Below, one piece after another: positions 13,703 to 29,767 of a stretch of DNA of 64,000 bases. The DNA comes from a virus. A program made the translations under genes and the position numbers. The stretch is from IMG/VR virus record IMGVR_UViG_3300046002_004036, positions 34,084 through 98,083 of that record; one strand, written 5' to 3'. The notes under the pieces were generated by a model that worked only from the letters and a program-made list of their open reading frames with translations, did not search any database and was not told where the DNA came from. The first letter of the stretch is position 1. Each line of letters starts with the position of its first letter.

Positions 13703-13975
13703 CTATATAAAGTCAGGGACATCTTGTACTGCGCCCCATTTTCCTAGTGGGCATTCAGCATGTGGAAGTTTTGCCTTTTGAGCCATAAAGCATCCACATT
13801 TTTTGCATTGTCCAGTAGACTTAAGAAATGACGGACATTTTTTGCATAGACTATATCTATCATTAAATGTTTCTTTATCTACGTTTTCAATTTTTGGATT
13901 TAATAGGTCCCACGGCCTTGCTGCATCCCCTGCGCTTTTTTCTTTCCAAAGTTGCCAAGCAGATTTTTCTGTCAT
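13703..13975 (-). CDS. Six-Cys metal-binding protein (paralog of 59800..59997)
   Basis: R..CKKC...CKKCGCFM..K..L..A.CP..KW. Confidence 0.75.
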   Translation of the reverse strand: MTEKSAWQLWKEKSAGDAARPWDLLNPKIENVDKETFNDRYSLCKKCPSFLKSTGQCKKCGCFMAQKAKLPHAECPLGKWGAVQDVPDFI

Positions 13976-14254: not shown

Positions 14255-16825
14255 TTAATTAATTTGAAAATCATCAAATTGAGTTCCGCCACTGCCTGTT
14301 CCTGGCGGTGTTTTTATTATTCCAAAAGCGCTCTGGCCTACAAGCGAAGATTTTGTTGGGTTTGATGCGGTATAAGATTTTGTAGTTATTGTTGAACTTC
14401 TTGCCGTATTAGAATATAATGTTGTAGATATATTATTACCTGAAGTGGATACAGAAATTCCACCAATTGTTGATGGAGATTCTTCATTTGAAAAAATATT
14501 TTCTGTATTAACTGTAGAAACACTAGAACCATCCGCTTTTAATGTATCAAGTCTTGTATTATAAACAGTTACACTAGATGAGCTATTTGAACAATTTGTT
14601 GGTAGCGATCCTCCATATTGTGTATTTGGTCCAACAGTACATCCATAAACTGAAGCATCATATTCTGTTGTAGAAGCAGAACTGTCATAGACTGTTGTAT
14701 TTACGTATGCATCATATACAATAGTTGAACCTGGATAATCGTATACGGTTGTATTTGTAGAAACAGAACTGTCATAAACGGTTGTATTTACGTATGCATC
14801 ATATATAATAGTTGAACTTGTAGAGTCGTATATAGTTGTATTTACAGTTGCATCATATACAAGAAATCCATTTACGAATCTTGTTTTGCAGTTATTTCCA
14901 GCACTTCCTAGACCGTTATTTGGGCAACTACTTGAAGTTCTTGTTTTGCAATTGCTTCCAGCACTTCCCGATCCATTGTCTGGGCAGGAGCTTGTAGTTC
15001 TTGATTTACAGTTACTAAATAAGTTTCCTGATCCATTATTTGGGCAAGTACTTGAGGTTCTTGACTTACAGTTGCTTCCAGCACTTCCCGATCCATTGTC
15101 TGGGCAAGAAGTAGAACTCACAGTTCTTGACTTACAGTTGCTTCCAGCACTTCCCGATCCATTGTCTGGGCAAGTACCTACAGTTCTTTGTTTACAATAG
15201 CTCAATAAATTTCCTGAGCTATTGTCTGGGCAAGTACTTACAGTTCTTGTTTTGCAATTGCTTCCAGCACTTCCAGAGCTGTTATCTGGGCAACTGGTAA
15301 CAATTCTTGTTTTACAGTTAGTTCCTAAGCTTCCTGTATTGTTATCTGGGCAAGTAGGAATAGTTGCAGTTGTATAATATACATATTTAGTTACAGCAGA
15401 TGAAGTTTTATTAACTCTTGAAGCCCACCAAGACCCAGCATCTGTTGACCAAAATGTTAGTCCAAGGCCTTCCGAGCCAGAAGGAAAACTAGCAGAAACA
15501 ACTGCATCGGTAGTTCCATCTAAAATAACTGATTGTTGCGGATATGTAGTTGGAGTTGATCCCGAAACAGTACTTGTAATAGATGCTACAGAACCGTTAA
15601 CGCTCCAAAGAGAACCGTTAGAGCTAAGGCTATATATATAGGAATTTGGACTCATAGCAGAATTAATAATTGGAGTCATTGTACCTAATCCCCCAGATAC
15701 CGTTCTTGTATAATTATCTATTACTTGACCAATTTTTGCATCAATTGATGAACTGTAGTAGTAGTAAAATGTTGTTCCATCAAGTGCAAGAACTTCGTCA
15801 ATATAGTAAAAATAATATTTTGGGGCAGTAGCATCATTTTGATTTACATTATATGGAGAAGAACCTGCATTAGATATAGATGAACTGGTTAATCCACTTG
15901 TTAGTGGGGTAGAAAAAATTGTTCTTCCAATGTATGAAGTTTTAGATTGAAATGTTCCAGATTGATAAGTACCAGATGTTCCAGTTATTGCTGCAAATGC
16001 GTACCCAGTTCCACTAATAGATGGGGAAGTTAATTGAGTTGGAACAGGTGAGGCATTTGTAGTAATTGTTAAAGTATTTGAATCATTACCTTGATAGCCT
16101 CTATATGTAGCATTTATACCAGTAATTGGAATTACTTTAAAATCATAAGATGTGCTGGATAAAAGACTAGATATTGTTGCTGTAGTTCCAGATTCTACTG
16201 AAGAAAATGAAAAAGTGGCATCTGAAGATAATTTGTAATAAACTAAATAATTAGCAGCATTTGCCGCGGCGGTAGAAGTCCAATTAATACTAACTGAGTT
16301 ATATGTGTGGCTTGTTTCTACAATTGTTATATTTTCTGGCCCATATATAGTTGTATTGCCAGAAGTTGATGATGCGGAGGTGGAATAAGTTGAATTAGTA
16401 GCAGTTACAACATACCTATATATATTAGTAGCATTTGGAGATACGTCAGTTAAATTATTTTGTAATAAATATGTATTTGTATTACTTGATCCAGAAGATG
16501 GATTAGTTGCGGATCCAGATGCTATTTGTGTCCAATTTGTTCCGCTATCTGTACTTTTATCAAATCTATATGTCATTCCAGTTGAATTAATCCAATAATA
16601 GTTTGTTCCAGTTAATGTTTTAGCATATGTTATTCCATCAGTAGATTGTGATATTGTTACCGTATTTTGAATTGATGGGGTTAAAGAAGAAGAAAATATT
16701 AATTTCCAAGATCCCGAAACTTTTAAATATGCAGAAGAAAGATTTTTCCAGACATCAGAATTTTTTAAATATACAGATGCTACATTTCTCCAGTCCCCAT
16801 CACTCCCCTTTAGTTTTATTGTCAT
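14255..16825 (-). CDS. Tail or tail-tip protein with FN3 domain and Cys/YD repeat insert
   Basis: FN3 pattern (SINW...YLVYY...LLSSTSYDFKV); S/T-rich; internal repeats. Confidence 0.75.
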   Translation of the reverse strand: MTIKLKGSDGDWRNVASVYLKNSDVWKNLSSAYLKVSGSWKLIFSSSLTPSIQNTVTISQSTDGITYAKTLTGTNYYWINSTGMTYRFDKSTDSGTNWTQIASGSATNPSSGSSNTNTYLLQNNLTDVSPNATNIYRYVVTATNSTYSTSASSTSGNTTIYGPENITIVETSHTYNSVSINWTSTAAANAANYLVYYKLSSDATFSFSSVESGTTATISSLLSSTSYDFKVIPITGINATYRGYQGNDSNTLTITTNASPVPTQLTSPSISGTGYAFAAITGTSGTYQSGTFQSKTSYIGRTIFSTPLTSGLTSSSISNAGSSPYNVNQNDATAPKYYFYYIDEVLALDGTTFYYYYSSSIDAKIGQVIDNYTRTVSGGLGTMTPIINSAMSPNSYIYSLSSNGSLWSVNGSVASITSTVSGSTPTTYPQQSVILDGTTDAVVSASFPSGSEGLGLTFWSTDAGSWWASRVNKTSSAVTKYVYYTTATIPTCPDNNTGSLGTNCKTRIVTSCPDNSSGSAGSNCKTRTVSTCPDNSSGNLLSYCKQRTVGTCPDNGSGSAGSNCKSRTVSSTSCPDNGSGSAGSNCKSRTSSTCPNNGSGNLFSNCKSRTTSSCPDNGSGSAGSNCKTRTSSSCPNNGLGSAGNNCKTRFVNGFLVYDATVNTTIYDSTSSTIIYDAYVNTTVYDSSVSTNTTVYDYPGSTIVYDAYVNTTVYDSSASTTEYDASVYGCTVGPNTQYGGSLPTNCSNSSSSVTVYNTRLDTLKADGSSVSTVNTENIFSNEESPSTIGGISVSTSGNNISTTLYSNTARSSTITTKSYTASNPTKSSLVGQSAFGIIKTPPGTGSGGTQFDDFQIN
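14645..14866 (-). repeat. 8 tandem ~27-bp repeats encoding TTVYDxxxx
   Basis: Counted in the translation: unit lengths 9,9,9,11,9,9,9,9 aa. Confidence 0.9.
14867..15355 (-). repeat. 8 tandem ~60-bp repeats encoding (T/S)CP(D/N)NxxGxxxxxCKxRxxx
   Basis: Counted in the translation: unit lengths 20,20,20,22,20,20,20,21 aa. Confidence 0.95.
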
Positions 16826-19809: not shown

Positions 19810-22800
19810 TTATTGTATCCTTTTAAGTCCCAGCCTTGTTTCAAGGCCTTGATTAAATGAGTGAGATACAGAATGAACAAAATATTTTTGCTGGCTTATA
19901 CCATTTAGAGAATAAGTAAGAGTAATTATGTCTCCAACTTGGATTAAAGGATTACCAAATATACTAAGGTTGGCATCTTTTGAAAAACCTTCAATTCCCA
20001 TTTGTACCAGCTTAAGCATTCTTTGTGCTGCTTGCTTTGACTGTATCCATTCTGAGTCTAGTTGTGCTACTTCTGAGCTATTAGATTGATCAATCAATAC
20101 CTCCAAAATTTCAGGGTCAGAAGGAGCAACAATTTCATGTGTCCAGAGATTTAAGTTAATTGTAAATTGATCAAGGTCATCTGCCTCTTTATGTAAAAAT
20201 ACCATGTTTGATGAATTATTAGCAATTACCATCTTTGCTCTAAATCCTGTGTTAATTGGGGTTGAGTAAGAAAGTGAATATTCATCAATTAACTTTTTTT
20301 GATAATTAGTCTGATCTTCTTTTTCATTTCCTGGAAAATAATACCACATATATTCAACTGGTAACACATCTACTGAAACTGCTGCAGGAGTTGTATATTG
20401 AACATCGTAATAGTTAATTCCAGCTACTTCAGGGCTTGTCTGCATTAAATAAGTAATTGAATTTGAGTATAGTGGTTGACCTTGGACTAAACCATTTAAA
20501 AATTCTCTATCTTGGTAAAAATAACTAACGCTTCTTTCTGTTAATGCTTTTTCTGTTGCATGAATTTCTCTAAGGGCGGCAGGAGAAACTCTTGTTCCCT
20601 GATCAAAATATTCAGGTTCTGGGTGTAGATCTGGAACCATTGTAGGATACATTGATGCATGAAAGCCAAACTTAGTTCCTGTTTGAATGTCATCATCAAA
20701 GTATGGTTTTTGTCTCATACCAGTTAAACCATTTACTTCAGTTGATTTCCAGCCAGAACCTCCAGGATTTGTTGTTACATCATAATCATCTGTTTTAGAT
20801 TCTTGCCATCCAACTATTTCTACGTTGTTTAAAAATATTGATAAAATTATTTTGTTGTTTCCTACGGTACCGCTTTCTCCATCTGAACCATCTGAAGAAG
20901 TTATTGCAACTTTTAAATTAAATGGGTTATCTGTTACATAAGAGTATTCATATTCTTTACCAACCAAAGTTTTTTTAATTATCTTTGAAAAATTATTTAC
21001 GATACTGTTACACTCTCCAGTAACCTCTGACCAAAACATTACACCAGTTGTTACATTTTTTGCTAATAATACATACTTGTATTTTGGTGGATCGTAAAGA
21101 TCTCCTGGTGATTTTGGATTTTCTTGGTTATACCTTACAAGCTCAATAAAATAAGCTTCTGCAGAAGATGTTGTACTTGCCATGTTAAAGAATAGACCAG
21201 CAGAAGCCACAGACTGATCTGGCATATCAAACTTTACAGAATAGGTGTGATAACCTATATCTGTTTCAGTTGTTGGATATATGAGAAGTTTATTATTTAT
21301 ACCAATATCATATATGGTTTCACTAACGTTTATTTTTGAAATGCTTGGCAAAGTACTTTCATTATCATTGTCATCTATTATTGATGTATATCCTGAAGAT
21401 GTTGCTAATGCAAGGGTTGAATCATTAAATCGTTTTTCAGAAAGACTCTTGCTGGCTAAAGTAGTAATTCTTGTATGTGCTGCTGGCACTGTTCCATATA
21501 GTCCACGCTGAACATTTGTAATATTTCCAGTAGGAGTTACTATAACTTCATAGTCAAACGGAACTGTTGCCTCTCCGCCAGAGACATAAGTGCCTGCTGC
21601 TGGATCAATAATTGAAAAAGAAGTATTTGTTCTGCTAGAAATAATTCCATTTATGTTATATGTTTTAGGATTAACTGCAGTGACAATCACTTTTTGTCCT
21701 ACCTTAAAAGTATTTGCTGCCGTATAAACTACTGCGCTTCCGCTTCTAGCAACATTTGTAACAGTTGCATAAGAAGTTTTTAGCCCAACATTATTTTGTT
21801 TAATAAAATTGTTTATTTCCGATTGAAGTTCCGTATCATTTTTTATTGAAACTGTAATTGGACTTTCTCCAAACTTTCCAATCTCATATTCTTTATAAAG
21901 AAATGAAACAATTTCATTTTCAATAAAAGCATAACCACTTGCATCACGATTAAAAGTATGAAAAATGTCTTGAAGATCATTAACATTTATGTTAAACATA
22001 TTTGAATTTTTTTCCATGTTGCTATTTATATAGTTAAACCCAACAGAGTCTATGCTTTGTTGCTGCCATACAACATCATTAGATGTTGCATAAACAAAAG
22101 ATGGAGAATTTTTAACCATTGGGTTTGTAACATTTTGTAAAGAAGGAGATTGTTTAACTTTAGGAATTTGATATCTTAAAGAAATTTTTCCTGGCTTTGC
22201 TTTATTAGAGATAGAAAATCCACCTTGTTTAATGTTAAAGTCTGAGACTGTTAGATTAGATGTGCTTGAAGATAAAATATTATGCAAACTTAAAAATTTC
22301 ATAATTCCATATTCATCAATATATGCTCCAATTTGATAAGCAACAAATATCTTATTAAGTGTGTCTACAATAGTTGAGTCTTTTGAGTTGCAGTAAAAGT
22401 ATGCTAGATCCATTGGATTAGCTTTATTGTTACAAACGTTGTAAAGAGAGTCATAGTCGTAATCTGTAAAACCAGCCAAATCAAGAATATTAGTGATTAC
22501 ATCAAATACGTTTTTTAAGTTAACTACATAATCAGGAACTGGGGTTGATTGGAGATATCTTGAGATATCAAAAGACTGAATAGAAACTGTATCTATATCT
22601 GATTCATCCCAAGAGTCTGAATAAAATACCCCTGCTGGAACATAGGCTGTTGTAGATGTTACGGTATTTGTAGATAAATCAGAGTACTCAAAAAGATTAA
22701 AATTAACATAAAACTTAATATTTTTTCTAAGAATACTTGAAAGCAATGTAGAGGCACTATCGCTTTGACTAGAAAAAACATTAACTATTTCATTATTATA

Positions 22801-24165
22801 TAAAAGTGGTATTGCTGAAAGTGTTATGTTACAACTGTTTGTGTTCATTGAGGAAATAGGCAATAGATTATTTTGTCCGTCTAAGGATTTATCTATTGAT
22901 ATATTTTCAACAAAACTTGATAAATCTACTTCAAGTCTTGGAGAAACCTCAACAAGTTGCATCTTGACTAAATCACTAGTTAAATTAGCATTGTCATAAG
23001 AAGAAAATTCGGATCTGGTTGTTTTTGATATTTGTGATACAGATAATGATGTTAATGACATTGTTTGGCTTATAGACCCAGAACTTGTAAAACTAGGCAT
23101 AGAAGACCACTTTGTTTTTGTCCATTCCGAGCCTGTGTAGTATAGAGTCAATAGACCTGTGGTAAAACTATCTGCGTTAGCTGGCATAGATATGGTTTCA
23201 CTGCCGTCAACACTAATAAAAGAATTATTTACTTTTATTTTTATTGAAGGTATTGTTACTAGTGTATTAAACTTAACAATAATTTTGTTAGTAAGAATAC
23301 CCTTTTCATATTTTGCCGTTATCATATTACTTGTACCATCTGAAACAAAATATTTATAAGCAGAAATGTCTGTTGGTAAAGCACTCTTTAGTGCTGGTAC
23401 TGGGGAAGATGCTAGAAAAAATGACGGCATTTGCGTTATAGAACTTATTGGAGAATATACAGCAGATGTATAACCAGTTATTGTAGGTGAGGTAATTTTT
23501 CTATAATTAGAAGGAAATAAACAATTTATATTTCCAGATGGTACGTATGACTCACCTGGTCTAAAGTATGAGAAAACGCTATCGGTTGGCCAAAAAGATC
23601 CATACTTATAGTCCTCATAAGAGGTTTTGTATACTTCTGGTACCGTAAAATATACTATTGGATTATCAGTTATACCACTTAAAACATTAAAATTAACTCT
23701 ATAAGTAAATGAAGATATAGTATCTCCTGATGCTTGCGATGTTCCAATGTATGTGGTAATTTTAGTCCACCCAAGAGAACTAACTTCTTCTTGGGTTGAT
23801 CCGTATTGACTACTTGTTCCTTCGGCAAAAGCAGTAGCCATAATTGGCATAGAGTTATTTGTTTTTACATAGGTAATTATTTTATATGCTTTACCGCCAT
23901 TAGCAGTAACAGAATATTGTAAAAAACCTTGTCCACTTGACATTGTAAATTTTTTAGTTGTAAAGTTAGGTTTTGATTCACCTGTGGTTGCAGAAGCTAG
24001 GGTACCCGTAGAAGAAGGCGATGTTAAGCTCATTGCTGTAATATCACCTGCAATAGTTACATAAGGTGGATTAAATAAGTTATGATTCCACTCAGCAGAA
24101 ACTACGGGGACTAAACCAATTGAATCAGAATCATTAAAGATTGCAGAGTTAATGTTATCTAACAC
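19810..24165 (-). CDS. Large minor tail / tail-tip protein
   Basis: 1451 aa, two genes downstream of the tape measure; C-terminal GNPLIQVGDII motif. Confidence 0.8.
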   Translation of the reverse strand: MLDNINSAIFNDSDSIGLVPVVSAEWNHNLFNPPYVTIAGDITAMSLTSPSSTGTLASATTGESKPNFTTKKFTMSSGQGFLQYSVTANGGKAYKIITYVKTNNSMPIMATAFAEGTSSQYGSTQEEVSSLGWTKITTYIGTSQASGDTISSFTYRVNFNVLSGITDNPIVYFTVPEVYKTSYEDYKYGSFWPTDSVFSYFRPGESYVPSGNINCLFPSNYRKITSPTITGYTSAVYSPISSITQMPSFFLASSPVPALKSALPTDISAYKYFVSDGTSNMITAKYEKGILTNKIIVKFNTLVTIPSIKIKVNNSFISVDGSETISMPANADSFTTGLLTLYYTGSEWTKTKWSSMPSFTSSGSISQTMSLTSLSVSQISKTTRSEFSSYDNANLTSDLVKMQLVEVSPRLEVDLSSFVENISIDKSLDGQNNLLPISSMNTNSCNITLSAIPLLYNNEIVNVFSSQSDSASTLLSSILRKNIKFYVNFNLFEYSDLSTNTVTSTTAYVPAGVFYSDSWDESDIDTVSIQSFDISRYLQSTPVPDYVVNLKNVFDVITNILDLAGFTDYDYDSLYNVCNNKANPMDLAYFYCNSKDSTIVDTLNKIFVAYQIGAYIDEYGIMKFLSLHNILSSSTSNLTVSDFNIKQGGFSISNKAKPGKISLRYQIPKVKQSPSLQNVTNPMVKNSPSFVYATSNDVVWQQQSIDSVGFNYINSNMEKNSNMFNINVNDLQDIFHTFNRDASGYAFIENEIVSFLYKEYEIGKFGESPITVSIKNDTELQSEINNFIKQNNVGLKTSYATVTNVARSGSAVVYTAANTFKVGQKVIVTAVNPKTYNINGIISSRTNTSFSIIDPAAGTYVSGGEATVPFDYEVIVTPTGNITNVQRGLYGTVPAAHTRITTLASKSLSEKRFNDSTLALATSSGYTSIIDDNDNESTLPSISKINVSETIYDIGINNKLLIYPTTETDIGYHTYSVKFDMPDQSVASAGLFFNMASTTSSAEAYFIELVRYNQENPKSPGDLYDPPKYKYVLLAKNVTTGVMFWSEVTGECNSIVNNFSKIIKKTLVGKEYEYSYVTDNPFNLKVAITSSDGSDGESGTVGNNKIILSIFLNNVEIVGWQESKTDDYDVTTNPGGSGWKSTEVNGLTGMRQKPYFDDDIQTGTKFGFHASMYPTMVPDLHPEPEYFDQGTRVSPAALREIHATEKALTERSVSYFYQDREFLNGLVQGQPLYSNSITYLMQTSPEVAGINYYDVQYTTPAAVSVDVLPVEYMWYYFPGNEKEDQTNYQKKLIDEYSLSYSTPINTGFRAKMVIANNSSNMVFLHKEADDLDQFTINLNLWTHEIVAPSDPEILEVLIDQSNSSEVAQLDSEWIQSKQAAQRMLKLVQMGIEGFSKDANLSIFGNPLIQVGDIITLTYSLNGISQQKYFVHSVSHSFNQGLETRLGLKRIQ

Positions 24166-24671
24166 TAGATCTCCGTAAATTCAATACTTATATCTACATA
24201 GTCTGCTACTGAGGTTCTTTTTGAAAGAGTCTTTGAAAATGAGGTTATAAAAACACTATATGTTCTAGATCCCGTTGCATTTGTCGTAGATGTTTCTGTG
24301 TACGCCGTTTTAAAATTAGTGCCAGATTCGTCTGGAATTGCACCTAGAGCAGGGTCTGCATTAAGTTTAGATTCAATAACCTTAACATATATTGGGATCC
24401 CAGCGTTAGCATTATAAAATGATTCCATCCAAGCAGCGCCTTTATTGCCGTCTGCTGTCTCTGCTGTCTTTGTAGGCAAAAATGTCCAAGAAGTTGAAAT
24501 GTTATGTTTTTTAGCAACTACATATTTTCTCATAGCACCATTGGCCATACGAGATGATGACTCAATTAGATCCACGTCTATCTGGATAGGTTCTCTATTA
24601 TGGTCTGTTAGTTTGTACCAAGTTGATCCATTTAAGGATACCTGTATACCTGCTTGAATTTTATATACCAT
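24165..24671 (-). CDS. Distal tail protein-like
   Basis: Immediately follows the tape measure; RMANGAMRKY; ends with EFTEI. Confidence 0.7.
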   Translation of the reverse strand: MVYKIQAGIQVSLNGSTWYKLTDHNREPIQIDVDLIESSSRMANGAMRKYVVAKKHNISTSWTFLPTKTAETADGNKGAAWMESFYNANAGIPIYVKVIESKLNADPALGAIPDESGTNFKTAYTETSTTNATGSRTYSVFITSFSKTLSKRTSVADYVDISIEFTEI

Positions 24672-27600
24672 TACATCATCACCGCATTTGATTTATTATT
24701 TTTTGAGGTTTCAAGTTTAAGTTTTCTAATTACTTGGTTTGCTATTTCACTTGGATTTGAACTTCCACCATTTATAGTCATATCAATATTATACACTGCT
24801 CCACCCATTGAAGTGCTTGAATTTGATGTACCAACCTTTTGATTGTTAATTGCATCCATAAATCCAACACCATAGTTTTTAACTGAATCTGCTTTTACTA
24901 TATATTCTCCATTAGATACACGAAGTTGTGGTAGTCCACCACTTGCAAATCTAGCAGCGATTGAGTCTGATGTTCCCGTGCCTGGACCTTTAATAAGACC
25001 ACCCATGTAGTTGCCTTTTGCTTTTGCTTTATTTAATGCTGTTTCTGCATTAGTAACTCTTGCTCCAGCAGTTAATTCTGAGATTCTATTTTCTAGATCT
25101 GTTATTTTTTTATCAAGTGCAATAGATGCTGTTTCTTTATTAAATTCTGCTCTTTGGAATGATTTTTGTTGATCAATTATTGCAGCACCAATATAGTTAC
25201 CTGAAATTTTTGCTTGAACTGCCTCTTGTTGCAATTGCATTAATTTTTGTTGATACTCATATTCACGTTTTACTTCGTCGGCAGATTCTTTAGATGCATC
25301 TCTAATTTTCTTTTTTTGCACAAGCTCTTGTTGAAGTCTAGCAATTGTAAGCTTTGCTTGTTTAGAAAGCACATCAGTATTTGTTCCACCAGCGCTGCCG
25401 CCGTCTTCAATACCGCCAAACATCTCTGCTAAAGTTTTTTGAGTTTGATCATACAATTCTTTAAAATCTTTTGATTTTGCGTATGCTTCAATTTGTTTAG
25501 CTAGGCTAGTTTTTCTCATTAAATTGTTTTTTTCAGCAAATGATCTAACTGCTGGAATACGAATATTGCCTTTTTCGTCACGCTCTATAGGTGTTGTTTG
25601 CATTACAGCATTTGCTAACATTATTTGTCCAGCACTTAATTTTGCCGCTAGTCCTGCAGATTTGTAGACTTCTTTAATTTGATTAAGTCTATCAATAGCA
25701 TCTTTATTTCCACTATTATTTATTGCAGTACTAAGTGCAATAACTCCAATTTTTGCATTAAGCGAAGAAGCATTTACTCCGTCTATTCTTTGTTTCATTT
25801 GATCAAAAGTAAGTGATCCATTACTAGTAATACTAAATATATTTAACAATTGATCTGCAAATGCTTTTTGTACTGCAGTTAATTCTTTATATGATTTTGC
25901 AAATTCTCCTGCAACATTTACATTATATAAAAATGAATCACCATTTTTTTGAATTAAAGTATCAAGTTTGTTTAAACTTTTAGTTGTAGCTGTTTGAGCA
26001 TCAACAACATCTTTAGAAACAGACTGCCAAACCGCTCCAAAATCTTTTGTTCTGTTCGCAGCGGCAAGTAAAACTTGTACATATTGTTGTGCATTTTTTG
26101 GATCAAGTCCACCAGTTGCAATTGCTGAAGTAACTTGTGATCTAATTGAACCTGTAACACTTTGTAGATCAGACTTATTAGATGATATATTTTTAATAAA
26201 TTTTGATATTGGGTCATCTTCTGGAAGTGCTTTAATAGAAGCAACCATATTTTGAATTTCTGGAGAAAGAAAACCTAAAGAATCTTTAAGGGTTTTTGAA
26301 GAATCGGTAATACTAGTTATTTTTAAACTAGTGTCTAAAGCAGTATCGCCAAACATTTTAATAACTTCTGTACTTGCTGTAAAAGTTGCTTTTACTGTAG
26401 CATCATGTTCTTTTTCTTTTGATATAAGTGTAACTAGTGCAGAAGAAACTAATCCTATTGCAGCCCCTGCTGCAGTACCCCAGGGACCAAAAAGCATACC
26501 CATATTAGCACCAGTCATGGTAGATTGAATAACTCCTTTACCAGCAAAGTCTGGCATGGATCCAAGTGCCATGTTTGCACCAAGGAGGCCAAGACCTCCA
26601 CCAAGTCCTCCAACCCTACCCATTCCTCCACGCATTCTTCCTGCTACTGAAGTGTTTTGTGCTTGTGGTCTAGGGATTACTGATAATTCTTGTGTTCCCG
26701 CAGGAATTATAGGACCAATTGGGGCAGGGCCTTGTCCTCTTGTTGCACGTCGTGCTCCAGTTCTGGTTCCATTTACTGCTGTTGAACTTAATTGTTCTGC
26801 TTGTGTCTTAACATTCTTTTTACGCTTTTTCATTCCAACTTCAAGGCCACGAGCAATGTCTTCACCAATTGGAATTGTTTTTTTAGAAGGAGATGCAGTA
26901 CCTGCTGCTTTAGCTGCAGATTTAATTGCGCCATTTGAAATTTCTGCTGCTTGCCCGTTCATAACTTGTGCAGCTTTTGATACAGATCCTGAAGCCATTG
27001 GATTAGCTTGCAAAGATGCAATGTCTGTCATCTGTGGTTTAAATACGTGACCCATCTGTAAATCTGCTGCAGAGTTTCCAGTCATTCTTTCATATAGAGT
27101 TTTAACTCCAGGTCTGATTGCTGTGTAAGACCTTGTTCCAAATAGTTTAGTTTGAAAAGCTCCTCTTCTTCCACGAGATGGGTTTGTTTCTCCAGGTTTT
27201 CTTGCCTCTGTAGGAATTGTTCCATATACATCTGGATCTAATCCAAAAGTTTTTCTTACAACTCCTCGTTCTGCCTCAGATGCTATCTGGTTAACTTCTT
27301 TTTCTACCGTTTGTCCTGCATTTGTCCAAGCGCTAGCAAATCTTTCATTACTATCTTTTATGTCTTTATATGTTGTATCAAGATCTAAGTTTAATTTATC
27401 AACAAAAGACTTAGTAAGGTTTTCGTATTCTTTTGCAATAGGATCAAATTTTCCTACACGTATATTTGATTGTGTTGGAGCAATTCCTCTTGACTCACCA
27501 ATTCTTGCTATTAGGTTTGATAAAACAGAAGGGACGTCTGTTGCTCCTGCTTTTTGTTTCATATTTTCTGTTTTGTTTTGTAGTCTCATTGCAAATTCTG

Positions 27601-29767
27601 GAAATATTGGAATTTTTCCATTTGCAAAACCTGGAATATTTCCAGCAACTAGTCCTGCAACCATTCCTGGATATTTTTTTACACTTGCTGCTGGTATTAC
27701 TGCTTCACCATTTGAAACCATTGCTGGAATAGAATCTGAAGTACCATTTCCTGGACCAGTGATAATTCCACCATTTGCAAGTTTTCTTGGAATTCTCATC
27801 ATTCCAGGATTGATCGCTGCAAACCTTGCTCCTGCTGCTGCTGCTGATTGATATGCAGCAATAAGTTTATTTAATTCTGCAGTCTCAACTGTAAATTGTT
27901 GTGTGAGTCTTGCATGTGACTGATTAAGTGAATGTGCTGCGGCAGCTGCTTCTAGTTGCTCGGTTGTCATGTACTGTGTTTGTTCACCAAGATTTTTTGA
28001 TTGCCCTGTTAAATTTTGATAACCAGTACGAAGTGTTAAGAATAATTTCATTATATTTGCAACACCGTTTGCAAGTAAACCAAAAGTCATAAGTAGTATT
28101 GGTCCAAGACCACCAATAACAGTTACCATTACGGTAATTGCTTTTTTAGTTCCATCGGAAAGATCTGCAAATCTGCTTGCAATTTTTGAAACAAAGTCAA
28201 GAACAGGAGTTACTGCTTCTAGAAATGCTTGTCCTACTGGAATTATTGCAGCCTTAAGATCTTCAACAGATTTTTTAAATTTATTCATTGATGAATTGGC
28301 TGTAATGCCTAATTCTTTATTTGATAAAGATGCAAGTTCTTGTACCGATGATCCTGCTAAATCTAAAACTCTAGAAGCTTGTGTTCCATCTTTAGTTACG
28401 TTTTGAAATAATGTAGACAAACGAGCAAACTGAAATTTACCAAACATCTGTTCAATGGCTCTGGCCCTCTGTAAAGGTGCAAGAGTATCAAGTGCTTGAG
28501 CAAAACCAATTACAGTAGCTTTTAGATCGCCTTTGTTATTTTCTACAATACCATTAATATCAATGCCCAGTCCCTGAAACATTGCTCTTGCTTTTGTACT
28601 TGGATTAATTAATGATGCAAGGCCAGACTTAAGTGCGTTAGCTCCTTCTGATGCATTTACTCCGCCTTCTTTCATAGCAGTGAGGAAGAATGCTAAATCT
28701 TTTACATCTCCACCAAGTTGCTGAATAATTGGTGCAACTTTTGGAATTGCAATTGTTACGTCGTCAAGAGATAAAACAGTCTGGTTTTCTACTGCGTTAA
28801 GAAAATCAATGCTATTGGCAAGATTGGCACTTGAAGTTCCAAATGCATTTTGTAAAGAAATTGTAGTTTGAAGAGCCTGTTGATTATCAATTTGTCCAAG
28901 GACCGATAGTCTTGTTGCTTCTGTTGTCTGGCGTTGTAGATCTAGCCCTTTAAAGCCTGCTGCAGCCGCATCAGCGGCCAAACCAACAGTATCTGCAACT
29001 GCTATACCATATTTAGTAAACTCGCTTGCAAGGGCCTGTACGTCTGCTAGAGCTTGTTGTGTTTCTTCTTGTGGAGTAAATAAATCTCCATATACCTTTT
29101 TAAATTTAAGTGCTTGTGCTTCCATCTTCATAAAGGCTTGGGATGCAGCAGAGCCAACAGCCATAAGTGGCAGGGTAAAACCAACCATTAACTGACGTCC
29201 AGCCCACTGTGTATTTTTACCAAAGTTTAATAGATTAGTTGAACCTTGCTTCATTAGCTGATTAAACAGTGCTTGTTTCTGTGCAGCAATTTGAGTCTGT
29301 GTTGCAAAGTTACCCATATCTAACTGATTAGGAATAATAGCAATAGCTTTCATTACTCCAGAAGCATCTCTGCCCATCTTAATGTATTGGGTTTGAAGTT
29401 TCTTTACCCGATCTTCTGCTACCTTGCCAATTGTGTCATACTCTGATTTAAATAATCTACCAAATGTTTTTGTAGATGCTCCAGCATAACGGAAATATTC
29501 TCGCATTGAGAACTTGTTCTTTTCAAGAGAGCTAGTAAAAGACTCTGATGTTGTTTTTACATTGCGGAGTTCTGCAGAAAAAGATCCAATAGCATTTACG
29601 CTACTAAGAAAATTTCTCTGCAGATCCCTTTGTGCAAGTGCTGCTGCTGAACTTGATTTAGCTATTGAAGAGTGAAACTGAGATATCTGACGTTGTAGGT
29701 CCTTAAGTTGGCCCAATGCTTTGGACGTGTCAATATTTACGCCAATATTAGCATTTACATCAGCCAT
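24671..29767 (-). CDS. Tape measure protein
   Basis: 1698 aa, Ala-rich and helical; TP901-like core; hydrophobic Gly-rich segments; two GPGxGTSDSI motifs. Confidence 0.95.
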   Translation of the reverse strand: MADVNANIGVNIDTSKALGQLKDLQRQISQFHSSIAKSSSAAALAQRDLQRNFLSSVNAIGSFSAELRNVKTTSESFTSSLEKNKFSMREYFRYAGASTKTFGRLFKSEYDTIGKVAEDRVKKLQTQYIKMGRDASGVMKAIAIIPNQLDMGNFATQTQIAAQKQALFNQLMKQGSTNLLNFGKNTQWAGRQLMVGFTLPLMAVGSAASQAFMKMEAQALKFKKVYGDLFTPQEETQQALADVQALASEFTKYGIAVADTVGLAADAAAAGFKGLDLQRQTTEATRLSVLGQIDNQQALQTTISLQNAFGTSSANLANSIDFLNAVENQTVLSLDDVTIAIPKVAPIIQQLGGDVKDLAFFLTAMKEGGVNASEGANALKSGLASLINPSTKARAMFQGLGIDINGIVENNKGDLKATVIGFAQALDTLAPLQRARAIEQMFGKFQFARLSTLFQNVTKDGTQASRVLDLAGSSVQELASLSNKELGITANSSMNKFKKSVEDLKAAIIPVGQAFLEAVTPVLDFVSKIASRFADLSDGTKKAITVMVTVIGGLGPILLMTFGLLANGVANIMKLFLTLRTGYQNLTGQSKNLGEQTQYMTTEQLEAAAAAHSLNQSHARLTQQFTVETAELNKLIAAYQSAAAAGARFAAINPGMMRIPRKLANGGIITGPGNGTSDSIPAMVSNGEAVIPAASVKKYPGMVAGLVAGNIPGFANGKIPIFPEFAMRLQNKTENMKQKAGATDVPSVLSNLIARIGESRGIAPTQSNIRVGKFDPIAKEYENLTKSFVDKLNLDLDTTYKDIKDSNERFASAWTNAGQTVEKEVNQIASEAERGVVRKTFGLDPDVYGTIPTEARKPGETNPSRGRRGAFQTKLFGTRSYTAIRPGVKTLYERMTGNSAADLQMGHVFKPQMTDIASLQANPMASGSVSKAAQVMNGQAAEISNGAIKSAAKAAGTASPSKKTIPIGEDIARGLEVGMKKRKKNVKTQAEQLSSTAVNGTRTGARRATRGQGPAPIGPIIPAGTQELSVIPRPQAQNTSVAGRMRGGMGRVGGLGGGLGLLGANMALGSMPDFAGKGVIQSTMTGANMGMLFGPWGTAAGAAIGLVSSALVTLISKEKEHDATVKATFTASTEVIKMFGDTALDTSLKITSITDSSKTLKDSLGFLSPEIQNMVASIKALPEDDPISKFIKNISSNKSDLQSVTGSIRSQVTSAIATGGLDPKNAQQYVQVLLAAANRTKDFGAVWQSVSKDVVDAQTATTKSLNKLDTLIQKNGDSFLYNVNVAGEFAKSYKELTAVQKAFADQLLNIFSITSNGSLTFDQMKQRIDGVNASSLNAKIGVIALSTAINNSGNKDAIDRLNQIKEVYKSAGLAAKLSAGQIMLANAVMQTTPIERDEKGNIRIPAVRSFAEKNNLMRKTSLAKQIEAYAKSKDFKELYDQTQKTLAEMFGGIEDGGSAGGTNTDVLSKQAKLTIARLQQELVQKKKIRDASKESADEVKREYEYQQKLMQLQQEAVQAKISGNYIGAAIIDQQKSFQRAEFNKETASIALDKKITDLENRISELTAGARVTNAETALNKAKAKGNYMGGLIKGPGTGTSDSIAARFASGGLPQLRVSNGEYIVKADSVKNYGVGFMDAINNQKVGTSNSSTSMGGAVYNIDMTINGGSSNPSEIANQVIRKLKLETSKNNKSNAVMM

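Follow-up and report, generated by a model that had tools for sequence, protein, structure and literature searches.

A stretch of 64,000 nucleotides (nt) of viral DNA, given as one strand and corresponding to positions 34,084-98,083 of the IMG/VR record IMGVR_UViG_3300046002_004036 (hereafter the window, to whose numbering coordinates refer unless another sequence is named), carries on its minus strand the gene of an 856-amino-acid (aa) protein with two arrays of short repeats. In this protein, referred to below as the stalk protein, a short N-terminal beta repeat is followed by three FN3-like domains and then by a beta-sandwich of the ConA-like carbohydrate-binding type. An insert of 237 aa divides the sandwich in two and comprises eight Cys-loop units, an NG turn and eight units marked by a YD dipeptide. 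A preliminary description, made from the window sequence alone, had recognized the two arrays at 14645-15355, which corresponds to aa 491-727, and had proposed that they fold into a hairpin. The relationship between the two arrays in the window protein and its homologs, and the architecture that it suggests, are presented here.

Anatomy of the stalk gene

The gene and the elements of its insert are given below, with the outgoing arm named for the Cys-loop array and the returning arm for the YD array.

14255..16825, minus strand: whole stalk gene, 856-aa open reading frame (ORF), final gene of the tail module in the ORF list
14867..15352, minus strand: outgoing arm, aa 492-653, eight units, each a C-x11-C loop plus a 7-aa linker
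15107..15112, minus strand: outgoing-arm marker (+2 residues), aa 572-573, closing unit 4
14864..14878, minus strand: turn FVNGF, aa 650-654
14642..14863, minus strand: returning arm, aa 655-728, eight nine-residue x-x-Y-D-x5 units
14750..14755, minus strand: returning-arm marker (+2 residues), aa 691-692, closing unit 4
14591..14641, minus strand: basal pair of cysteines (C729...C745, C-x15-C) at the stalk foot, conserved in 14/14 array-bearing proteins

The outgoing units start at aa 492, 512, 532, 552, 574, 594, 614 and 634 and are 20 aa long, except unit 4 (22 aa). Each contains a Cys pair, the first being Cys492/Cys504, and a Ser/Thr-rich linker of seven residues (nine in unit 4). The eight 20-aa units reported earlier are therefore all present, with the spacing of their cysteines corrected from C-x12-C to C-x11-C. 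The FVNGF sequence followed by eight 9-aa YD units was found as described, at aa 650-654 and 655-728, unit 4 of the return arm having 11 aa. The two arms also share their irregularities. Outgoing units 3 and 6 are GNLLSY and GNLFSN variants and return units 3 and 6 both read (I)YDAYVNT, in agreement with the matched GNL(L/F)S and YDAYVN variants first noticed, and the 2-residue insertion reported between units 4 and 5 of both arrays consists of the extra residues that close unit 4.

Repeat numbers in homologs

Thirteen full-length homologs with both arrays (designated by P numbers) were retrieved and, with the window protein, form a set of 14 in which every Cys pair and every return unit was parsed. 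The regular outgoing count equals the return count in 14/14 proteins, with 8/8 in the window protein and P0002, 9/9 in ten proteins, 10/10 in P0004 and 12/12 in P0008. Unequal counts, named in the preliminary description as the outcome that would speak against paired arms, do not occur among these 14 array-bearing proteins. A tree of the flanking sequences, with the stalk left out, has nine layers as the common state and shows at least three independent changes, each matched on both arms: a change to 8 in the clade of P0001 and P0002, 12 layers in P0008 versus 9 in its sister P0014, and 10 layers in P0004 versus 9 in its sister P0009. At the turn, 12/14 proteins have a cap, in which an aromatic-Pro motif comes after a Cys pair; in the window protein and in P0004, the turn is a plain NG.

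Searches for further members yielded little: in IMG/VR, distant relatives with other insert types only; in the JGI metagenomes, one locus that was already known; in a representative library, 18 matches, mostly repeat look-alikes; and, when the basal Cys-pair motif was sought in IMG/VR as a degenerate DNA pattern, no match. Among shorter proteins, the search gave one mis-called fragment of another lineage (P0018, 166 aa), whose return arm has TVYDTYGC at its end and no degenerate YSGNV unit; the sequence is incomplete and not countable, and its ending points to further stalk variants.

Antiparallel register and pairing code

The two-residue markers give the relative orientation of the arms. With the outgoing marker after unit m, the returning marker after unit n and N layers in total, n = N-m holds in 14/14 proteins, as exemplified by P0002 (m=7, n=1, N=8), P0004 (m=8, n=2, N=10) and P0008 (m=11, n=1, N=12), while the parallel relation n = m holds only in the window protein. 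As the preliminary description had rightly pointed out, the symmetric window protein alone cannot separate antiparallel from parallel pairing; the homologs decide for antiparallel.

Mutual information (MI) of return positions 3-9 with the six residues that end the loop, pooled over 114 non-identical layers, leads to the same register. At antiparallel shift 0 it reaches 21.1 bits versus a shuffled mean of 9.7 (z = 24), compared with z of 13-15 at antiparallel shifts of +/-1, 4-8 at other antiparallel shifts and 2-11 in parallel registers (6.5 at parallel shift 0), all these z values being inflated by relatedness, so that only the contrast between registers is meaningful. The arms are, as far as can be read at the level of sequence, paired in antiparallel fashion and in register, and the long antiparallel hairpin first proposed, with one Cys unit and one returning YD strand per module, is upheld by the mirrored markers and by the MI peak.

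Pairing follows a readable code. STSSN loops occur with NY(V/Q/A) return units, SSG(N/T)N loops with (V/A)AG(T/S) units, DQV(T/N)K loops with (G/R)xVD units and NL(L/F)xx loops with A(Y/F)xNT units, and short C-x8-C loops ending in GGG occur with SD units, which have Ser instead of Tyr, and never with YD units. In the sister proteins P0001 and P0002, layers 2, 5 and 8 change type on both arms at once, with STSSN and NYV(Y/S)T in P0002 versus SAGSN/SAGNN and SS(A/V)ST or ATVNT in P0001. All of the 93 standard layers have C1, N4, G7 and C13 in their outgoing unit, and Y3 and D4 in their return unit. The strongest couplings join loop positions 6, 9, 10 and 11 to return positions 5 and 6 (Z 10-13.5); V18 of the linker couples with V2 of the return unit (Z 7.6), and the end of the linker (positions 19-20) shows a weak coupling to the neighbouring return unit at its positions 6-9, which is expected of an antiparallel ribbon.

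An alternative is that the two arrays fold independently, the first as a Cys-braced solenoid and the second as a separate YD sheet, with counts kept equal by a common span or by joint inheritance. This is improbable: it leaves unexplained the mirrored +2 insertions of all 14 proteins, the register-specific antiparallel pairing of unit types, the three layers that switch type on both arms together between P0001 and P0002, and the short GGG loops that always face SD, not YD, units. Several observations nevertheless favour it, or otherwise weigh against pairing of the arms. The array-bearing homologs number only 14, and 10 of them share the 9/9 state by descent. Correlated divergence computed per layer gives r = 0.30 at shift 0 versus 0.27 at shifts -3 and +1, and does not discriminate between registers. 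Neither of the two AlphaFold runs described below supplied predicted contacts between the arms, stalk confidence staying at or below 55 on the predicted local distance difference test (pLDDT) scale; in the second run, aa 494-727 lie at pLDDT 30-55 with no usable model. Lastly, three secreted-looking bacterial proteins (P0024, P0028 and P0030) carry 20-aa CPDGS...C repeats of C-x10/11-C type, with weak matches (E about 1e-4 to 1e-5; C-x11-C arrays of P0028 and P0030, E about 1e-4). The YD return array was not seen in their retrieved sequences, and therefore the Cys unit may fold alone; these repeats may represent the same loop unit used by itself, or convergence.

Repeats at the DNA level and changes of length

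Both arrays were found by Tandem Repeats Finder, the 60-nt period being present in 7.2 copies, and each arm contains a longer repeat.

14936..15293: outgoing-arm DNA super-repeat, period 186 nt (three units plus 2 aa), 1.9 copies, 80-81% identity
14668..14843: returning-arm DNA super-repeat, period 87 nt (three units plus 2 aa), 2.0 copies, 88-89% identity

Given this detection at the DNA level and the same layout in 13 homologs, the arrays are not a product of chance. The window protein carries a three-layer duplication on each arm. In P0008, the three layers that are additional with respect to P0014 sit mid-arm on both arms and not at the tip, which excludes a single insertion or deletion across the turn and requires two separate DNA changes. 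The earlier claim that a change of length needs coordinated duplication at two DNA sites is thus borne out by the three-layer duplications on each arm and by the mid-arm layers of P0008. The stalk would change in length only when both arms gain or lose equally many units at mirrored positions, blocks of three layers being frequent.

A further explanation would make the mirrored pattern a by-product of a DNA or RNA hairpin between partly reverse-complementary arrays. A few inverted matches of 18-21 nt, 76-83% complementary, do occur between outgoing linkers and return units 4 and 7. However, an outgoing unit has 60 nt and a return unit 27 nt, and the few higher complementarity values are not register-specific. 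The best complementarity in 18-nt windows along the antiparallel diagonal was 10.1/18, compared with a mean of 10.2 for all pairs and 10.06 for shuffled sequences, and this explanation was rejected as extremely improbable.

The split beta-sandwich and the FN3-like chain

Outside the stalk, the protein is divided as follows.

16691..16825, minus strand: N-terminal short beta repeats, aa 1-45, three W-(K/R)-N...Y-L-K motifs read in the sequence
15728..16690, minus strand: three tandem FN3-like domains, aa about 46-366, from AlphaFold2, VIA and profile matches
15353..15727, minus strand: N-terminal sandwich half, aa 367-491, whose long last strand continues into the stalk, from the AlphaFold2 model and its fold match
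14258..14635, minus strand: C-terminal sandwich half, aa 731-856, from the AlphaFold2 model and its fold match

Two AlphaFold2 predictions were made. The first used the whole protein and an alignment of 14 sequences, and gave pLDDT of 69-93 per 10-residue block over aa 1-366 (mostly 70-93 in the FN3 region), less than 50 over aa 367-856 and 23-37 in the stalk. The N-terminal repeat was modelled as short strands with pLDDT of about 70-77 and may be the part that docks on the baseplate. Its W-(K/R)-N...Y-L-K motif is kept even in the distant relatives L001, L004 and L007. The fold of the following region is FN3: around aa 160-260, VIA matches have Z of 12-14 and a root-mean-square deviation (rmsd) of 1.5-2.7 over 81-103 residues, tandems of three FN3 domains align over aa 45-366, matches to FN3 tandems include 8bnq_B (Z 12.5 with 269 aligned residues) and 3teu_A (Z 13.4, rmsd 2.2), and the family profile matches FN3 chains in the PDB with E down to 1.7e-10.

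The second prediction (model ma2c5c7931dc4) was restricted to aa 367-856, with an alignment of 27 sequences that included distant relatives. In this model, aa 367-491 and 731-856 form one domain, the flanks being mostly at pLDDT 76-96. In the N-terminal half, block means are 64-93, and for the most part above 75, over model residues 1-120, and they drop to 51 at residues 121-130, where this half runs into the stalk; the C-terminal half has 63-96 over residues 361-490 and 81-96 from residue 381. A 22-residue strand (model residues 99-120) enters the insert and a 20-residue strand leaves it, and the FVNGF turn is one strand-turn-strand element with pLDDT of about 44-55 (blocks 281-300). The insertion of the hairpin into a C-terminal beta domain, already proposed from the sequence, is supported by this model, in which the two pieces make a single sandwich whose strands flank the insert.

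In the model, this flanking domain is a two-sheet jelly-roll beta-sandwich of the kind found in ConA-like lectins and carbohydrate-binding modules, and by fold it is assigned to the ConA-like carbohydrate-binding type. Its best VIA match is the C-terminal receptor-binding domain (RBD) of TM4 gp23 (9n6a_A; Z 15.9, rmsd 2.9 Å over 173 residues), followed by CBM66 (4b1m_A; Z 15.4) and the Douge BppU-CBM (8zdo_a; Z 14.2). Foldseek gave weak matches only (E 0.04-0.5), to legume lectins and to CBM2 of the J-1 Dit protein. Six uncharacterised proteins of uncultured Caudovirales in BFVD also match the model (E 1e-14 to 5e-8). The whole protein has no match to a Pfam family at E <= 1 and none to a PHROG at E <= 0.001. 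Douge BppU is a homodimer whose CBM binds mycobacterial cell-wall glycans (PMC13033339), and by analogy the sandwich of the stalk protein could bind carbohydrate.

The same models bear on the possibility that the stalk is an intertwined oligomer, in which two or three chains each run out and back to form a six-stranded needle like the tip of T4 gp37. Many phage fibres are trimeric, AlphaFold runs on a monomer typically fail on intertwined fibres, as they do on the stalk, and the recurring quantum of three layers could reflect a helical repeat. In the gp37 tip, three out-and-back chains build a six-stranded antiparallel needle (PMC9659904, PMC7291167). Against an oligomer stand the confident modelling of the FN3-like chain and of the lectin-type sandwich as a monomer, the homodimeric and not trimeric nature of the structurally closest baseplate protein, Douge BppU, the lack of His and of HxH motifs in the stalk, and counts of 8, 9, 10 and 12 that are not limited to multiples of three. 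A homotrimer prediction for aa 478-750 had a score of 0.00 with an uncertain fold, and weighs neither way. All in all, an intertwined oligomer is an unlikely reading, with roughly one chance in a handful in its favour, and a stalk formed by the two arms of one chain is preferred.

Cysteine chemistry

All 18 cysteines of the window protein lie within aa 492-745. In the wider family as well, Cys is confined to the insert, and its number is even in 27/27 members despite very different inserts; inspection of the sequence found no His in aa 492-728. The preliminary description had left the choice between disulfides and metal binding by the Cys pairs. On the basis of the even counts and of the lack of His in the stalk, disulfides are the better reading and metal sites are disfavoured. 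A difficulty for this reading is the reducing host cytoplasm, because of which the disulfides would have to form after lysis or by some other route.

Proposed architecture of the stalk

Taken together, these data make it likely that the insert is an out-and-back stalk of eight layers, each made of one Cys loop and one antiparallel YD segment, emerging from the sandwich. The chain would leave the sandwich between its two long strands, run outwards through eight repeats, turn, and come back through eight repeats, outgoing unit i pairing with returning unit N+1-i. In each layer, the outgoing piece would be a disulfide-closed C-x11-C loop followed by the 7-residue linker, and the returning piece the 9-residue x-x-Y-D-x5 unit lying antiparallel to it, with the tip of the loop (positions 6 and 9-11) packed on the two residues that follow YD.

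Lengths are informative in this respect. Among layers, the loop has anything between 8 and 12 residues while the return unit keeps its length; the linker has seven residues in regular layers and nine only at the marker, and the return arm gains two residues at the mirrored height of the marker. The in-line residues of a layer (second Cys, 7-residue linker and first Cys of the next unit) add up to nine and thus match the 9-residue return unit, so that the loops would be side excursions of free length. The simplest reading of the couplings and lengths would be a two-stranded antiparallel ribbon, in each layer of which one disulfide-closed loop breaks the outgoing strand and folds onto the returning one. 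Such a ribbon would measure about 3 nm per layer and about 24 nm for eight layers if fully extended, and packing may be more compact. The stalk would serve in the recognition of the host cell surface or in reaching through the envelope.

Genomic setting

The genome of the record has 98 kb and a G+C content of about 35%, and the phage is a freshwater phage of actinobacterial type; its portal protein shares 45% identity with those of large Streptomyces phages. Upstream of the stalk gene and on the same strand are found the genes of the portal, a protease, the tape measure, a 168-aa protein, a minor tail protein, a 172-aa protein and an FN3 fibre, of which the following are relevant here.

24671-29767, minus strand, as the stalk gene: tape measure gene, 1698 aa
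24165-24671, same strand: 168-aa gene in the usual slot of the siphovirus distal tail protein; its sole match is phrog_1194, function unknown
19810-24165, same strand: minor tail protein, 1451 aa
16835-19231, minus strand: fibre gene, 798 aa, with an FN3 domain and a weak phrog_19846 match

The tape measure, minor tail and fibre genes precede the stalk gene on the same strand. This arrangement is that of a siphovirus tail module, of which the stalk gene is therefore the last gene. Its product is probably a peripheral protein that binds a receptor or decorates the baseplate. In the distant relatives L001-L003, a homolog of the FN3 fibre gene is located directly upstream of the lectin-domain gene, and therefore both genes travel as a pair. 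Downstream of the stalk gene, with one 72-aa ORF in between, a 90-aa Cys-rich protein is encoded at 13703-13975 on the minus strand. It matches DUF6171 (E 8e-7, above the Pfam cut-off) and has no sign of a thiol oxidoreductase.

Wider family and significance

Relatives that have the flanking sandwich in common carry other inserts at the same site. In P0015, P0016, P0017, P0019, P0035 and P0036, which have the same N- and C-terminal parts, a non-repetitive insert with 14 Cys is found instead of the two arrays, and P0019 and P0036 keep the cap motif despite this insert. On the flank tree, such non-repeat inserts nest inside repeat-bearing clades, which suggests that inserts have been swapped between lineages by recombination. 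Three distant relatives have inserts of other kinds.

L005, 2902-3756, plus strand: 285-aa relative, CYQT x5 on the way out, a Cys pair in the cap and NPY(N/S)C x5 on the way back, with 6+2+6 Cys
L007, 298-1959, plus strand: outgoing units of about 33 aa and three Cys each, returning CYTSTR units of one Cys each
L001, 2833-5244, plus strand: 36 Cys, then Tyr-rich Y.Y..RQ return units

The Cys layout of L005 suggests a disulfide ladder between its arms.

Repeat proteins are normally built of contiguous units, and their length can be changed by a single recombination step. Here, the two units of a layer are encoded roughly 100-700 nt apart, and a viable change of length therefore needs two matched events. 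With at least three such matched changes, the stalk provides a natural system for the co-evolution of coupled repeat arrays and a case for reading a residue-level pairing code from sequence alone. In an abundant and uncultured group of freshwater phages, the distal lectin-type domain carries a hypervariable and probably disulfide-stapled probe, which is a candidate determinant of host range and has a fold that present structure predictors do not resolve. The balance tips slightly towards a broader view, in which the stalk exemplifies an undescribed modular 'zipper' architecture, with layers drawn from two distant repeats, a readable pairing code and paired duplications that are often of three layers. 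The two-armed Cys-rich stalks of the wider family at the same site would then reflect a general way in which freshwater actinophages build host-reaching probes.

Comparison with known systems

Direct searches brought no counterpart of the stalk. In the ESM Atlas, no feature matched and structure matches had template-modelling (TM) scores of 0.24-0.33 with unrelated families; a PDB sequence search gave nothing at E <= 10; GenBank phage records gave only a low-complexity match of 38% identity in an inovirus; and no description of such a protein architecture was found in the open-access literature. The stalk has a fair chance of being a new fold.

Several systems share some of its features. RHS/YD repeats resemble the return arm by their recurrent YD dipeptide in short beta-rich repeats. 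Their repeat has roughly 20 aa and a consensus of the R-Y-x-Y-D / G-R-L type; the stalk has a period of 9 aa and no Pfam match to RHS_repeat at E <= 1, so that the likeness is confined to the dipeptide. The beta-solenoid of the Tenebrio antifreeze protein also forms a regular rod from short Ser/Thr/Asn-rich repeats with one internal disulfide each. Its coils are contiguous, whereas a layer of the stalk needs a second, sequence-distant repeat, and the topology is out-and-back and not that of a solenoid. The arms of SMC and Rad50 are antiparallel alpha-helical coiled coils that run out and back, with matched lengths encoded far apart. They belong to cytoplasmic ATPases and are a conceptual analogue only, the stalk being a disulfide structure of beta strands and loops in a virion protein.

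In the needle of the T4 gp37 tip, the chain likewise runs out to the tip and returns antiparallel, with repeats both ways and a receptor-binding end (PMC9659904, PMC7291167). The stalk differs from this needle in lacking His, in having a C-x11-C pair in each outgoing unit and in being mounted on a lectin-type sandwich and an FN3 chain; no sequence or profile similarity between the two was detected. Bartual et al. in 2010 reportedly described gp37 as an intertwined trimer with seven iron ions bound by the His residues of HxH motifs; no such metal motif exists in aa 492-728 of the stalk protein, where His does not occur.

For the flanking domain, the closest systems are the TM4 gp23 RBD (PDB 9n6a) and the Douge BppU-CBM (PDB 8zdo), which have the same ConA-like fold and likewise belong to distal tail proteins of siphophages of actinobacteria type. 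The flanking domain shares only 7-10% sequence identity with them and belongs to no Pfam or PHROG family. The host domain and the class of gene role are thus of known kinds; the two-armed, pairwise-coded and disulfide-looped stalk is, as far as known, new.

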